A stretch of DNA of 64,000 bases, taken from contig CAWDEB010000026.1 in the NCBI GenBank assembly GCA_963801155.1, positions 24,038-88,037 of the forward strand. Direction: 5' to 3'. The notes under the pieces were generated by a model. The model did not search any database. It had not been told where the DNA came from and saw only the letters and a list, made by a program, of their open reading frames with translations. The DNA is from an uncultured Actinomycetes bacterium (GTDB lineage: Bacteria > Actinomycetota > Actinomycetes > Streptosporangiales > Streptosporangiaceae). The position numbers were made by a program, and so were the translations under genes. Below, one piece after another: positions 33,842 through 41,703 of the stretch. Each line of letters opens with the position of its first letter. The stretch's first letter is position 1.

Positions 33842-33879
33842 CTCTGCACTGTATGCCTCCGGGGGAGGAGACTAGCTTC

Positions 33880-34428
33880 ATGACTGAGCACACGCACCAC
33901 CAGGACGAAGACCCAGCCTGCGCGGTGGCCCACGGCGCCGTGCCCGCCCCGGCCTCGTCGGCTGCGGGGCAGCGCACGCTGGTAGCGGTCTTCGCCTCGC
34001 CGGTCGCCGGTTACCTGCTGAGATACGGTGCGGACCTGGGGTTCCGCGGGTTCTTGCTCGAACCCGACGAGGCGCGTGCCGCCGGGGCCGCCGCGCTCGG
34101 GTTTCCCCTGATCACGGTCCCGCCAGAGGACCTGGATGACTCGGCCGACGTGGTGGTGACCGACCATCACCGGCCCGAGCTCGGCGTCGTGCTCCGCGAC
34201 GCGCTGGCCACCAAGGCGAGGTGGATCGGGGTCATGGGCAACCCGCGGCACGTCGGGCCGCACGTGGCGATGCTCACCGAACTCGGTGTCCCGCCGGAAG
34301 AGATCGCTCGCGTGCACCGGCCGATCGGGCTCAACATCGGCTCGCGGACGCCGCCCGAGATCGCGATCGCCGCCCTGGCCGGGCTGCTGGCCGACCGCAA
34401 CGGCCGCTCCGGCGGGTTCGAGTTCTGA
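33880..34428 (+). CDS. XdhC-family (Rossmann-like accessory) protein
   Basis: GGAGGAG precedes ATG 33880. The C-terminal part reads [47 protein letters not shown], as in XdhC/CoxI. Confidence 0.65.
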
Positions 34429-34508
34429 TCCGGCGCTCCAAGACGGCCAAATGTCAGTACCGGGGGTTAATCTCAGGCTCGGTATTGGACCAGGAGCGTG
34501 ATGAGTTG

Positions 34509-35153
34509 ATGGCCGACTACGGCGCGCAGGCTCGGCCTGCCAGACCCGGCGACGTCCCGCGGCCGAAGGGGTCGAAGGGGTCGAAGGGCCGGCCGGGACG
34601 TAAGCCGAAGGGCAGTGTGCCCGTGTTTGCCCCGGAAACTACGCCGGACAAGCCCGATCCCGACCACGTGCTGACCTGGCGGCAACGCAAGATCCTCCGG
34701 GCGATCCGGGAGTCGGTGCAGAACCGCGGCTACCCCCCGTCCATGCGGGAGATCGGCAACGCGGTCGGCCTGACCAGCACAGCGAGCGTCGGGTACCAGC
34801 TCAGCACCCTGCAGCGCAAGGGTTACCTGCACCGGGACGTGGGCCGGGCACGGACCGTGGAGGTACGCCTGCCTGGGCGACCGGAAGGGGCGGTCGGTGA
34901 GAGTACCCGCGCTGACCAGCGGGATGCCGCCCTGAGCAGCCGTGAACTGATCACCTGGCTGGCGGACCGGCGCTCTGAGCTGGGTCTCTCGCAGGCCGAG
35001 GTGGCGCAGCGGATGCGGACGTCGCAGCCTGCGGTGGCACGGCTGGAATCTCAGCGATATGACGCCCAGCTCTCGACGCTGGCGCTTTACGTGGAAGCTC
35101 TGGGACTCTCACTGGATTTCCTGCTCAGAGAGAAGCCGACGAGCGGCGCCTGA
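34509..35153 (+). CDS. chimeric regulator: LexA-type N-terminal winged-helix DNA-binding domain + C-terminal XRE-family HTH; no S24 peptidase domain
   Basis: [61 protein letters not shown] matches LexA_DNA_bind. The C-terminus [56 protein letters not shown] is an XRE HTH. There is no Ala-Gly cleavage site and no Ser/Lys dyad region. Confidence 0.75.
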
Positions 35154-35154
35154 C

Positions 35155-35210
35155 CGCGGCGTCCGGGCATACCCCCTCCGCGGCGTCCGGGCATACCCCC
35201 TCCGCGGCGA
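35155..35210 (+). repeat. 24-bp tandem direct repeat, 2.3 copies
   Basis: CCGCGGCGTCCGGGCATACCCCCT occurs at 35155-35178 and 35179-35202, with a partial third copy. It is intergenic, directly after the stop of the LexA-XRE gene. Confidence 0.9.
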
Positions 35211-35298
35211 TCGGTGGCACCCCATAGCGGTCGGCGCACTTGCGCCCGTTAGGCTGAAACTAGCCGAAGCGGGGGCAAAGGCACACGGGAGGCAGGCT

Positions 35299-37107
35299 GT
35301 GGCCGGGGCGTTCTTCCGGCACCGGGGACTCATCGCGTTCTCCGCCGGAGGCGCGATGGCCGAAACCACCGTGCTCTCGTTCCTGGCGCCCTCCGCCCGT
35401 CCGCTCGCACCGCAGGTCACGGCGCTCCCGCCGCTCGCGGCTTATCACGACCTCCGCTGGCTGTTCGCGTTCAACCAGTCCTGGCTCGGCTTCACCGCCG
35501 TGCTCGTGCTGCTGGTGCTGGCCCGGGCGGCCGTGGACGCGATCCTGGTCCAGCTGGCCTGGCCACGCCAGGCCGATCCGGCGGCGCCCCGCCTGCCCAG
35601 ACCGCGCTTCCTCACCTCGGTTGTGTCCTGTGCCGTGCTGACCTTCCTGGTGGGGCTGGTGCTGTCCCCGGTGGTCACGCTGATGTTCGGGGTGGCCCTG
35701 CTGCCGTTCTCCTGGCCGTATTTGGCCGCGGTGCCCATCCTGCTCGGCACCACGGTGGCACTGAGCCAGGGCGGCGTCGGCCAGGCGTGGTGGCGACGGC
35801 TGCCCCCGGTGCGTACCGCGGCGTGGGTGGTCGCGACCTTCCTGATCTTGTCCCTGGCCTCGGCGCTGATGGCGCATCTGGACACGCCCGGCATCGTGGC
35901 CGTGGCCGGGCTGGCCGGGGTGGTGGACGCCCGGGCCTGGTACGGGCTCACCGCCGCCGCGGTTGCCAGGGGGGTCCCAAGAGGGGCCAGGGGGTCCCAA
36001 GGGGGGTCCGGGGGGATGGGTCTGTCCCAAGGGGGGTCTGGGGGGATGGGTCCCCCCAGGAGCGGGGGGGGGGTTGGGGGGGGTCGTCCCCCCCGGGGTA
36101 TCTGGCTGCCGGTGGCGCCGCTGGCCGCGATGATGGTCCTCGCCGTGATGGTGGGGATGACCCGGCTGGCCTTCACCGGCACCGTGCATTTCGCCACTGG
36201 CACGAGCGGCGCAATCGCCGGGGCGGTCACCAGTGCCGACCAGGGAGCCGGGCTGACGACGGGGACGGCCGGTGGGGCCGGCGGGAACGGCGGCGGCAAA
36301 GGCGGTGCCGCCACCGGCGCGGCCAAGCCCCGGGGGGCGGTGCTGGTGGTCGAGGGCTTCGGGTCGAGTTGCTGCCACGCCGCCGACACCCTGCGGGCGG
36401 CCGAGCCGGGCATGCCCGTGCGCCAGTTCTCCTATCTGGGCCTGAACGCCGCCGGGCAGCCGGTCCCGTACGGCCCGGCGGCCGGGGACCTGTCCATCCA
36501 GGCGCTCGGCGACCGGATGGCCGCCCAGGTGGAAAGCCTGTACGACCAGGTTGGCGTGCCGGTGGACGTCGTTGCCGAGAGCGAGGGCACCCTCGGTCTG
36601 TACGCGATGCTGGCCCGGCACCCGCATGTGCCGGTCAAGTCGGTGACGCTGCTGAGCCCCATCGTCGAACCGGGCCAGCTGGGCCAGGCGGACGGCACCG
36701 TTCCGGGTGCCGCGCTGACCACGCTGAACAACCTGGTCGGCGGCATGTCGCCGTACGGCAGCTCGGGGGCCGACGCGCTGATCGACTCGGTCAGCCAGGT
36801 TGGTGCCCGGTATTTCGAGCTGGTCAGCCGCCAGCGGTCGCTGCCCTGGCTGGCGGTGATCCCGCTCGCCGACGCGGTGACCCTGCCCGCGTGCCCGTGG
36901 CCGCAAAACGTGATCTTCGTCGACGGCTTCCACGGCGGTCTGCTCGGCTACGCCTCCGTCCGCCAGCTGGTCGAAGCCTTCCTGTCCGGCGGCACCGCGA
37001 GCGCGGACAGCGCCTCCCAGCGGGAGCTTCGGACCACGGCCCAGCTCATCGCGTCGGCGGCCACGGCCTGGCGGATGCCCGAGCTCCACCAGGCCTGCCC
37101 GGGCTGA
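35299..37107 (+). CDS. membrane-anchored alpha/beta-hydrolase-like protein with G/P-rich insert
   Basis: GGGAGG sits 6 nt before GTG 35299 (alternative ATG 35356). The N-terminal half has about 6 TM helices. The C-terminal half reads VLVVEGFGSSCCH ... VVAESEGTLGLYAMLARHP, with a nucleophile-elbow-like AESEG. Confidence 0.65.
   Translation: MAGAFFRHRGLIAFSAGGAMAETTVLSFLAPSARPLAPQVTALPPLAAYHDLRWLFAFNQSWLGFTAVLVLLVLARAAVDAILVQLAWPRQADPAAPRLPRPRFLTSVVSCAVLTFLVGLVLSPVVTLMFGVALLPFSWPYLAAVPILLGTTVALSQGGVGQAWWRRLPPVRTAAWVVATFLILSLASALMAHLDTPGIVAVAGLAGVVDARAWYGLTAAAVARGVPRGARGSQGGSGGMGLSQGGSGGMGPPRSGGGVGGGRPPRGIWLPVAPLAAMMVLAVMVGMTRLAFTGTVHFATGTSGAIAGAVTSADQGAGLTTGTAGGAGGNGGGKGGAATGAAKPRGAVLVVEGFGSSCCHAADTLRAAEPGMPVRQFSYLGLNAAGQPVPYGPAAGDLSIQALGDRMAAQVESLYDQVGVPVDVVAESEGTLGLYAMLARHPHVPVKSVTLLSPIVEPGQLGQADGTVPGAALTTLNNLVGGMSPYGSSGADALIDSVSQVGARYFELVSRQRSLPWLAVIPLADAVTLPACPWPQNVIFVDGFHGGLLGYASVRQLVEAFLSGGTASADSASQRELRTTAQLIASAATAWRMPELHQACPG
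35965..36100 (-). repeat. G6/C6-tract element copy (reverse orientation) plus 30-bp tandem duplication, inside the CDS and in frame
   Basis: GTCCCAAGGGGGGTCYGGGGGGATGGGTC occurs twice (35994-36023 and 36024-36053). It is followed by AGCGGGGGGGGGGTTGGGGGGGGTCGTCCCCCCCGGGG. The reverse complement matches the core of the 50622 and 53461 copies. It encodes GSQGGSGGMGLSQGGSGGMGPPRSGGGVGGGRPPRG. Confidence 0.75.
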
Positions 37108-40512: not shown

Positions 40513-41703
40513 TCGGCCTGATCGCCCAGGTCGTAGTGGATCAGGTGGCGGGGGACGCCGCGCCCTTTCAGCACCTTCACGGTCCTGACGATCATCGCGT
40601 CCGGGCCGCTGATGTAGATGTCCCGGTCAGCCGAGGTGGCCTTGGCGGCGAGCTCGGGCACGGTGCCGTACATGACCTCGTCGCGGGCCGACTCGTCGGA
40701 GACCGCCGGGATGACCTGCAGCCACGGGTAGGCAAGCTCCATCTCGTGCAGTTCGGCCAGGTCGTACAGGTCCTGGTGGCGGCGCGCGCCGAAGTAGAGC
40801 ACGATCTCGCGCCGGCGGCCCGGCGCCGGCGCGTGGGTTATCGCCTCGATGATGGCCTTGATGGGAGCCAGCCCGGTGCCGCCGGCCAGGCACAAAACAT
40901 CCCGTGGCGAGTCCGTGTCGGCGGTCATCACGCCGTCCGGCGCGCCGAGCACCAGCGGGTCCCCGGCCCGCACGTGATGGACCAGGGCGGGGCTGACCAG
41001 GCCTCCCGCGATGGCGCGGACGTGCAGGCGCAGCGTCCCGTCCGGCCTCGGGGCGTTCGCGATGGAGTACCTGCGCCACAGCCTGGGCCAGTGCGGCGTC
41101 TGCACGCTGACGTACTGGCCGGGCCGGTAGCTCAGCGGCTGCTCGGGCGCCACGGTGAGCAGCGCGAGGTCGGGCCCGCGCAGTTCGGTGGCGGTAACCG
41201 TGGCGATCCACCAGGCCGGGGCGTGCCGGGCATCACGTTCGGCGGCGTCGATCATGACGTCCACGGCGCGGTCGAACGCGCGTTCCCAGGCCTGCTGCGT
41301 CGCCTCGTCCCAGGCCGGCCCGGCGAACCGAGTGCAGCGTGGCCAGCAGCGCCCGGCGGAACACCCCGTAGTGCCGCTCGCGGACCCCGAACTTGCGATG
41401 CGCGCGCCCGAGTTGCTCCAGGTAGGGCACGAGCACGGCCGCGTCCCCCTGGTCCTGGACGATGCGGACCAGGGCGCGGAAGAACCGCTTGCGCTGCACG
41501 TCCATGGCGGCCGGGAACATCGCCCGGATCTCGGTGTCCATGGCGAACAGTTGCCCGTAGAAATAGGTCATGGCCGCGTCGGAGGTCGGCTGGAGCAACA
41601 ACAATGAAGCCTGAGCAGGATTCCCAGCCGCCCCACCGGTACCGTTGAACCGGCCGGAACCCCCGTCATAACGGGGCGATCCGCCACCTGCCAACATCGT
41701 CAC
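40509..41703 (-). CDS. globin domain fused to FAD/NAD(P)-binding ferredoxin-reductase-like domain (frame disruption near 41320)
   Basis: ORF 41233..41703 gives the globin-like part (MTYFYGQLFAMDTEIRAMFPAAMDVQRKRFFRALV ... LGRAHRKFGV). ORF 40509..41264 gives the FNR-like part (RRYSIAN, LCLAGGTGLAP). Confidence 0.7.

Follow-up and report, generated by a model that had tools for sequence, protein, structure and literature searches.

The genome of an uncultured soil actinomycete of the family Streptosporangiaceae (GenBank assembly GCA_963801155.1) harbours, besides its own lexA, a second gene with a LexA-type DNA-binding domain (DBD), whose product continues into an XRE-type helix-turn-helix (HTH) and lacks the S24 autoprotease. 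The gene lies in the window analysed here, a stretch of 64,000 nucleotides of contig CAWDEB010000026.1 (positions 24,038 to 88,037, forward strand). We refer to the DBD-XRE order as L-X and to the order XRE-DBD-S24 as X-L-S. L-X fails four defining tests of a LexA, namely the S24 domain, the cleavage site, the model cut-off and autoregulation through an SOS box, and is best called a LexA-DBD/XRE paralogue. It belongs to an undescribed modular family of narrow distribution and weak constraint. As for its function, the reading that we favour tentatively, with a confidence a little short of even, is that L-X is a RecA-insensitive dimeric regulator with two HTH domains, in which the XRE domain would replace S24 as the dimeriser and possibly serve as a second reader of DNA.

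Domain architecture and the genome's own lexA

The features of the L-X gene and its surroundings are listed in Table 1. Pfam assigned LexA_DNA_bind to the N-terminal half of the protein with an E-value of 2.3e-24 (85.4 bits, cut-off 23.7). The LexA winged helix that the initial annotation had placed at about residues 55-120 is thus supported at residues 54-116, and the AlphaFold2 (AF2) and Foldseek results agree. In the AF2 model, which was built on 68 family members, the DBD comprises helices at residues 57-73, 79-86 and 91-104 and a beta wing of two strands (pLDDT 85-90). Taken alone, the DBD half matches the LexA N-terminal structures 3k2z and 3jso (Foldseek, phmmer). The basic extension in front of it, described at first as actinobacterial, aligns in tblastn with the N-terminus of the genome's own LexA, so that both proteins have it in common. 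It is absent from the orthologues L004 and L005. Judged by its motif, the GRP core of this extension may be AT-hook-like. The perfect 9-bp repeat of the coding sequence is missing from L006, L008 and L048 in the alignment.

An XRE-type HTH had also been predicted behind the LexA DBD, and it was recovered by Pfam as HTH_3 (PF01381) at residues 153-205 (E-value 1.5e-9, 38.1 bits, cut-off 23) and by AF2 as a five-helix fold. A profile of the XRE half found its best structural match in Mycobacterium tuberculosis HigA3 (6lty, E-value 2.3e-9) and also matched HigA2 and HigA, while Foldseek retrieved HipB, the 434 repressor, ClgR and DdrO for the same half. As modelled, L-X consists of two separate and confidently predicted folds that are joined by a flexible, disordered linker.

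Table 1. Coordinates of the L-X gene, its domains, neighbouring genes and non-coding elements in the window
Feature	Position	Strand	Details
L-X gene (LexA-DBD/XRE paralogue), CDS	34509..35153	+	214 aa; open frame without stop; orthologues 63-90% identity, same synteny
Basic disordered N-terminal extension	34509..34643	+	residues 1-45; pLDDT <50 at residues 1-43
9-bp x 2.8 perfect tandem repeat in L-X CDS	34564..34588	+	encodes KGSKGSKG; TRF
LexA winged helix-turn-helix DBD	34668..34856	+	residues 54-116; Pfam PF01726 (LexA_DNA_bind)
Inter-domain linker	34872..34931	+	residues 122-141; disordered, pLDDT <50 (AF2)
Five-helix XRE (HTH_3) domain, HigA/ClgR/434-repressor type	34938..35126	+	residues 144-206; AF2 pLDDT 76-92
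XdhC_C (Rossmann domain) protein, upstream neighbour	33853..34428	+	Pfam 84 bits; upstream in all orthologous loci
~600-aa membrane protein, downstream neighbour	35299..37107	+	presumed GTG start; after L-X in all loci
L-X own upstream region	34429..34508	+	conserved ATGTCAGTACCG block; alignment of six orthologous loci
-10-like TAATCT	34468-34473	+	upstream of L-X
RBS AGGAG	34492-34496	+	upstream of L-X
2-codon mini-ORF ATGAGTTGA	overlaps L-X start	+	within conserved upstream region
24-bp x 2.3 perfect tandem repeat	35154..35209	.	TRF; variable spacer, not conserved
Conserved non-coding block before 600-aa gene	35215..35298	+	more conserved than coding sequence (alignment)
14-bp palindrome GGCGCAcTTGCGCC	35233-35246	+	between -35 and -10 positions of downstream gene
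-10-like TAGGCT	35250-35255	+	in 35215-35298 block, with RBS GGGAGG

Repressor inactivation by self-cleavage has its textbook example in LexA. In the 214 residues of L-X, Peptidase_S24 (PF00717) gave no Pfam match and no Ala-Gly dipeptide was found, in agreement with the missing cleavage site and Ser/Lys region noticed earlier. In its linker, L-X shows no relationship to the VPLIGRIAAGGP motif that the LexA of the same genome carries. The NCBIfam model of the lexA equivalog, TIGR00498, aligned with L-X at model positions 3-69 only and scored 75.1 bits against a cut-off of 110.95. Since neither the cleavage site nor the catalytic dyad is present, inactivation by RecA* would be impossible, and we infer that L-X is insensitive to RecA*-stimulated self-cleavage.

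The source assembly is a MAG of 40 contigs with a completeness of 78%. It possesses only two LexA-type DBDs, that of L-X and that of the canonical lexA on contig C10. The canonical gene encodes 273 aa, scores 234.9 bits with TIGR00498, and carries the AAG cleavage site (IAAGGP), the GDSM motif and the Lys residue. It adjoins a LysM-like gene and nrdR. The L-X locus therefore lies outside the usual lexA/nrdR context, as had been suspected. When the full canonical LexA was searched against the whole assembly with tblastn, the L-X contig was matched by residues 17-120 only, which means that no S24 remnant is present in any frame on this contig. An S24 domain downstream in an alternative frame, as expected from a frameshifted ordinary lexA and raised as a possibility at the outset, is thereby ruled out.

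Distribution, origin and selective constraint

Six assemblies obtained from other samples (L003, L004, L005, L006, L008 and L048) carry the L-X gene with the gene order of the window around it. A word-indexed protein search yielded 3339 matches, ordinary LexAs included, and the 103 best clusters were aligned. The XRE subtype was present in 101 of these 103 clusters, and their motif order was L-X in about 67, X-L-S in 33, XRE-DBD in four and DBD-XRE-S24 in one. Clustering at 90% identity gives more than 60 clusters that have the L-X architecture in an intact frame; the domain combination, for which a search in other genomes had been recommended, is hence not unique to the source genome. XRE/LexA-DBD fusions related to L-X are common in metagenomes. 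Among the 50%-identity representatives, an exhaustive search revealed an L-X that is only distantly related (41% identity), proteins in which two LexA DBDs are combined with S24, and one XRE-LexA_DBD-WYL-WCX protein, whose tail is PafBC-like.

Among the 151 species-representative genomes of the same family, L-X was detected in one, the source genome itself. A profile of the XRE half, searched against 185,579 species genomes, detected one further L-X (L048) and four X-L-S proteins, all of them in soil MAGs classified as "uncultured Actinomycetes". L-X is restricted to roughly one genus-level clade. The X-L-S genes adjoin genes for IS605 TnpB, integrase or DDE transposase, and an SOS-like box follows shortly 3' of the stop codon in four of six of them. 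The XRE domains of the X-L-S proteins are 58-73% identical to that of L-X. A full-text literature search found no description of a protein combining the LexA DBD with an XRE domain.

The DBD of L-X is 82% identical to that of the genome's own LexA in amino acids and 90% in nucleotides, with a dS of 0.21. This value is similar to those of lexA between two species of the genus (0.26) and of L-X orthologues (0.09-0.30), so that the duplication is young, of roughly genus depth. Two metagenomes contain a DBD-XRE-S24 protein (P0035) encoded directly 3' of XdhC_C, and it has a conserved 5' end (..GCGTGATGAGcTGATG) in common with L-X. Its position and this 5' end identify it as a positional orthologue of L-X that retained S24. 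P0035 has a DBD with canonical signatures and, at the cleavage site, AAY in place of AAG. In L113, the upstream neighbour of the DBD-XRE-S24 form (L-X-S) is XdhC_C. Because the positional orthologue retains all three modules, we conclude that the XRE domain was inserted in the linker and S24 lost later.

The long read-through tail of L006 starts like the P0035 linker (nine of 18 residues) and includes, out of frame, 14 nt that are identical to codons for the GPILAE cleavage region. The similarity at protein level is weak, and the tail is suggestive of an S24 remnant. The simplest history is that lexA was duplicated, that XRE entered the linker, and that first the cleavage site and then S24 were lost. 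In the DBD tree, based on 80 columns, L-X forms two well-supported clades, and the backbone, which holds the canonical and X-L-S sequences, shows no clear branching order. In one well-supported L-X subclade (31 of 119 tree rows), 5 aa are deleted behind the recognition helix of the XRE domain, and helix 5 is missing. In G102, a genome of the same genus, XdhC_C is directly followed by the 600-aa gene and L-X is absent. This genome retains the spacer found downstream of L-X in other loci, which indicates that the L-X gene was deleted there.

Selection on L-X was measured as dN/dS (omega) against five orthologues. The DBD gave 0.28-0.46, the XRE domain 0.17-0.57 and the linker 0.9-1.9, with Fisher p values of 0.002-0.08 for the domains versus neutrality. 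Both domains are under purifying selection (omega about 0.2-0.5) and the linker is near neutral. For the DBD of canonical LexA in the same family, omega is 0-0.14, mostly around 0.03. The constraint on the L-X DBD is thus about ten times weaker than on canonical LexA, and the protein evolves about ten times faster. With omegas well above those of canonical LexA, yet below 1, L-X is a paralogue that is constrained but much relaxed.

These data bear on the idea that L-X is a by-product of lexA duplication or domain shuffling that is heading for loss and has no important function. Such decay would explain the stepwise reduction of the gene, from the loss of S24 through the erosion of XRE in one subclade, the deletion of the N-terminal extension in L004 and L005 and the variable read-through tails to the absence in G102. 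An omega about ten times that of lexA and the perfect slippage repeats in and after the gene fit it as well. Nonetheless, we consider it unlikely, since omega is significantly below 1 in both domains and near 1 in the linker, the frame is intact in the more than 60 clusters, and 46 columns are invariant over the 68 aligned family members.

The eroded XRE of one subclade, the same-genus genome without the gene and the relaxed constraint on the DBD also weigh against a regulator as proposed above. The selective value of L-X appears modest. Its physiological weight may be small, given its confinement to one genus-level clade, its relaxed constraint and its dispensability in a sister species.

DNA recognition, locus and proposed mode of action

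The recognition helix of L-X reads STASVGYQL, compared with STSSVSYQL in canonical LexA, and differs from it at two of eight positions. The canonical helix is invariant in 12 related genomes. The two differing positions align with Asn41 and Glu44 of Escherichia coli LexA, of which Glu44 is presumably a base-contacting position according to structure 3JSO. Across the L-X family, L, G, A or S occupies the Glu44 position, and some members have A or G at the Asn41 position. In the E. coli LexA complex, water mediates the contact of Asn41 with operator bases (PMC5999292). With a recognition helix that is both altered and variable, the specificity of L-X may differ from the SOS box.

SOS-like boxes were searched as TCGAAC-N4-GTTCGA with up to two mismatches. 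No such box was found within several kb of L-X, either in five orthologous loci or between 28 and 41 kb of the window. The only match nearby, at 41272, lies inside a flavohaemoglobin-like gene. All canonical lexA loci of the source genome and 11 relatives possess one to four SOS boxes, those of the genome's own lexA promoter being TCGTACGCCTGTTCGA and CGAACAGATGTTTG. According to the initial annotation, L-X could occupy SOS operators beyond the reach of removal by RecA*, or bridge two different operators; this is plausible, with evidence on either side. The 82% identity of the DBD to that of the genome's own LexA speaks for SOS operators as targets. The changes in the helix, the lack of a nearby SOS box, the fast evolution and the loss in G102 speak against them.

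LexA requires dimerisation, supplied by S24, for binding to its palindromes. In the proposed RecA-insensitive regulator, the XRE domain would take the place of S24 as dimerisation module and may itself read DNA, and two LexA-type winged helices would be positioned on palindromes that resemble the LexA box or are slightly altered. Repression by L-X at a subset of sites could then persist irrespective of damage, or L-X could act as an activator in the manner of gp6 of phage GIL01. M. tuberculosis HigA3, the nearest relative of solved structure, forms a homodimer through alpha1/alpha4 of its HTH domain, and a salt bridge joins Arg45 and Glu71; Cro/C1-type domains also use alpha1/alpha4 to dimerise (PMC7340258). 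In the alignment with HigA3, Arg155, Glu180 and the alpha4 hydrophobics of L-X are invariant or nearly so throughout the family, and by analogy dimerisation of L-X through its XRE domain is plausible. The beta-lid that tightens the HigA3 dimer has no counterpart in L-X.

The orthologous loci are arranged as DUF4032 (-), PALP (-), XdhC_C (+), L-X (+), the ~600-aa membrane protein (+), PabB-like (+) and ThyX (+). The membrane protein gave no Pfam or NCBIfam match. A consensus sigma-70 scan found no promoter for L-X, and the promoter assigned to it is therefore putative. The inverted repeat TCAGTACCG...CGGTACTGA around its -10 element is a candidate element; it is strong in the closest orthologues only, and its genome-wide 11-mer count is at chance. 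The 24-bp tandem repeat reported behind the gene is real, with 2.3 perfect copies. The closest orthologue, L003, has one copy of its unit, and in the other orthologues the unit is different or absent. A role as operator, recombination scar or terminator was rejected for this repeat, which is specific to the window and shows no terminator-like site. Both the 24-bp and the 9-bp repeat are products of recent slippage without conserved function.

The locus itself would suggest a local regulator that reads DNA mainly through its XRE domain and controls the 600-aa, pabB and thyX genes or its own promoter, with the LexA wing as an auxiliary. The gene order is strictly conserved, the downstream genes are co-directional, and a very conserved block has a 14-bp palindrome between the -35 and -10 positions of the downstream gene. 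Promoter palindromes close to the protein's own gene are the typical binding sites of the XRE/HigA type (PMC7340258). However, G102, a genome without L-X, conserves the block to the same degree, so that the block gives no evidence for regulation by L-X. In addition, the block is absent in the next genus, the exact palindrome has one further occurrence in the genome, and the promoters of L-X and of the downstream gene have no repeated operator in common. On balance a local role seems improbable to us, and the palindrome GGCGCAnnTGCGCC is weakened as a candidate L-X operator by its presence in G102 and its one other genomic copy.

The nearest free-standing relatives of the XRE domain (50-67% identity, ~85-110 aa) are distributed across Actinomycetota, especially Acidimicrobiia. 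In 52 out of 75 loci, the free-standing XRE gene is followed by a ClpP-like ORF on the same strand. The source genome possesses one such XRE/ClpP-like pair, on contig C33; in the ClpP-like protein of this pair, the catalytic Ser and His are replaced by Gly and Ala. The ClpP-like association, as seen in gene order, would link the XRE module to antitoxin-like or ClgR-like regulators. Beside L-X no toxin-like, ClpP-like or clp gene was detected in the examined loci and no small toxin ORF was called. A toxin-antitoxin reading was discarded, as the neighbours in all loci are XdhC_C and the 600-aa membrane protein. The C-terminus of L-X (..TSGA) is variable among orthologues and carries no ClgR-type Ala-Ala degron.

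These relatives raise the question of partner control, where a protein partner or a protease (the dead ClpP-like protein being one example) would use the XRE domain as a handle and, in place of RecA*, release L-X from DNA. The frequent ClpP-like ORF and the C33 pair are in line with this, as are the solved relatives, which are antitoxins or Clp-linked regulators (HigA3, ClgR). It is very unlikely nevertheless, because the N-terminal motif RRHEPVFPGF.EMA of the free-standing XREs is missing from L-X, no toxin-like or ClpP-like gene adjoins L-X, and the connection is one of association only. We give a similarly low chance to L-X as a LexA-type operator binder that is released by a signal other than DNA damage, with the XRE domain as both dimeriser and receiver of a partner (the dead ClpP-like protein or Clp proteolysis). 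If this held, a subset of SOS-type sites would stay repressed during RecA activation and be opened by a different stress. Together with the X-L-S, DBD-XRE-S24, XRE-LexA-WYL-WCX and double-DBD forms, it would then indicate that uncultured soil actinomycetes have rewired their SOS and PafBC damage networks in a modular fashion.

That L-X is an artefact, either a frameshifted lexA or a chimera of lexA with an XRE gene, has practically no probability left, as S24 is absent from every frame of the contig, a separate intact lexA is present in the genome, and the same junction and synteny in six independent assemblies of different samples, along with more than 60 protein clusters, exclude the misassembly against which the initial annotation had cautioned.

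Significance and comparison with known systems

As a LexA-type DBD separated from its protease, L-X is a natural experiment on what S24 contributes in terms of dimerisation, spacing and inducibility. It also shows a way in which SOS networks can acquire branches that do not respond to damage. The forms found at this locus build an unusually complete series, from a DBD-XRE-S24 protein with a spoiled cleavage site to DBD-XRE, to an eroded XRE and finally to loss. The LexA-DBD fusions, including the WYL-WCX form, suggest that damage regulators are more modular in uncultured soil actinomycetes than in model organisms.

Similar to canonical LexA, L-X possesses the winged-helix DBD (82% identity), the basic N-terminal extension and a flexible linker after the wing. 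In contrast to canonical LexA, it lacks S24, the Ala-Gly site and the Ser/Lys dyad, and would accordingly undergo neither RecA*-stimulated cleavage nor S24-mediated dimerisation. Its promoter has no SOS box, it is not located beside nrdR, two residues of its recognition helix are substituted and its evolution is about ten times faster.

The truncated LexA homologue gp6 of phage GIL01 consists of a DBD only, is 44% identical to the host LexA, and activates a late promoter (PMC6182141). Both gp6 and L-X have a LexA-type DBD without autoprotease, and gp6 acts as a sequence-specific regulator. By this precedent, gp6 shows that a LexA DBD lacking S24 can be an active regulator, even an activator, and the same may apply to L-X. 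Unlike gp6, which is phage-encoded, L-X is chromosomal and carries a second HTH domain.

The XRE subtype of L-X, with the recognition helix TSQxAVxRLE, is that of the HigA antitoxins and of ClgR-PopR (6lty; Corynebacterium glutamicum ClgR, 3f51/3f52). The residues of the Arg-Glu salt bridge and the alpha4 hydrophobics are common to these proteins and L-X. The HigA and ClgR proteins themselves are homodimers that bind promoter palindromes. L-X differs from them in having no adjacent toxin or clp gene, no beta-lid and no C-terminal dimerisation extension, and in the fusion of its XRE domain behind a LexA DBD. To the Clp regulators ClgR and PopR it is similar in fold only.

The CI/HdiR-type repressors, which combine an XRE HTH with S24, and the X-L-S paralogues draw on a common set of XRE, LexA DBD and S24 modules. 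Whereas L-X has the order DBD-XRE without S24, the X-L-S proteins have an N-terminal XRE domain, have kept S24 and are presumably cleavable, and their genes lie beside transposase or integrase genes with SOS-like boxes nearby.

The LexA paralogue gene and its 3′ neighbourhood

The gene of the window's LexA paralogue (L-X), which joins a LexA DNA-binding domain (DBD) to an XRE domain, has a start codon overlapped by a two-codon mini-ORF. This mini-ORF is retained in the orthologous loci L003, L004 and L006, as well as in the metagenome locus L113. Translation of the orthologues in L008 and L048 begins at the first ATG itself, which there belongs to the reading frame of the gene. The 9-bp repeat (see table) yields a longer basic N-extension in L-X (KGSKGSKG). 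A near-copy is present in the protein sequence of L003 (KGSKGPKN), and the repeat is absent from the orthologues in L006, L008 and L048.

Conservation of the non-coding block 3′ of L-X exceeds that of the adjoining coding DNA. The block contains the palindrome GGCGCAcTTGCGCC, TAGGCT, and the inverted repeat GGCTG..CAGCC, both arms of which co-vary across loci. It is also kept in the same-genus genome G102, which has no LexA paralogue. The ~600-aa gene that follows lies invariably between XdhC_C (or the LexA paralogue) and pabB-thyX. Its product had no match in Pfam or NCBIfam; in the C-terminal part, an AESEG motif resembles a hydrolase nucleophile elbow.

Coordinates and sizes of the described features
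Feature	Location	Strand	Size	Remarks
Mini-ORF ATG AGT TGA	window 34501-34511		two codons	overlaps L-X start codon (TGATG), 3′ of AGGAG site
Perfect tandem repeat	window 34564-34588		9 bp x 2.8	within L-X coding sequence
Non-coding block	window 35215-35298			precedes ~600-aa gene
Conserved protein	window 35299-37107		~600 aa	membrane segments N-terminal, Gly-rich repeats
P0035	L113:1390-2475			DBD-XRE-S24 form; same position as L-X, 3′ of XdhC_C
XRE-LexA_DBD-S24 paralogues	L009-L012, L025, L027, L029, L035		~350 aa	
XRE/ClpP-like gene pair	own genome, contig C33:200526-201529	-		outside window
P0124	metagenome		549 aa	HTH_3 + LexA_DNA_bind + WYL + WCX
P0206			369 aa	two LexA DBDs in tandem, then Peptidase_S24
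P0235			297 aa	two LexA DBDs in tandem, then Peptidase_S24

The XRE domain outside LexA fusions

Small free-standing XRE proteins, the nearest to the XRE domain of L-X, form a conserved two-gene cassette with a ClpP-like protein in contig C33 and among loci L030-L104. The XRE gene comes first, and its stop often overlaps the start of the ClpP-like gene. The XRE member is of the TSQSAVARLESG type, with the motif RRHEPVFPGF.EMA at the N-terminus. The C33 ClpP-like protein carries Gly and Ala in place of the catalytic Ser and His. The pair was found Actinomycetota-wide (52 of the 75 free-standing XRE loci), with Acidimicrobiia predominating, and none of the curated NCBIfam families matched it above cut-off.

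LexA-DBD proteins with other architectures

P0035 possesses an intact S24 domain, including GDSM and Lys, and its cleavage site is AAY, not AAG. Upstream of its gene lies an AT-rich palindrome (ATATCAA-AC-TTGATAT), atypical for the GC-rich DNA there. The XRE-LexA_DBD-S24 paralogues score above the TIGR00498 cut-off. Their host MAGs belong to uncultured Actinomycetes and each encode at least one further LexA-DBD gene. Genes for IS605 TnpB, integrases or DDE transposases are neighbours of these paralogues, and an SOS-like box was detected 50-340 nt 3′ of the stop codon in four out of six loci.

G151, the 6.8-Mb MAG carrying L048, gave a single match to LexA_DNA_bind, namely its eroded L-X gene. 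A canonical lexA was not detected there, which may be due to incompleteness of the MAG.

Besides the tandem-DBD proteins P0206 and P0235, the fusion P0124 was identified. PafBC is an actinobacterial damage regulator that is independent of LexA; P0124 has a ligand-sensing tail of the PafBC type, here joined to a LexA DBD.
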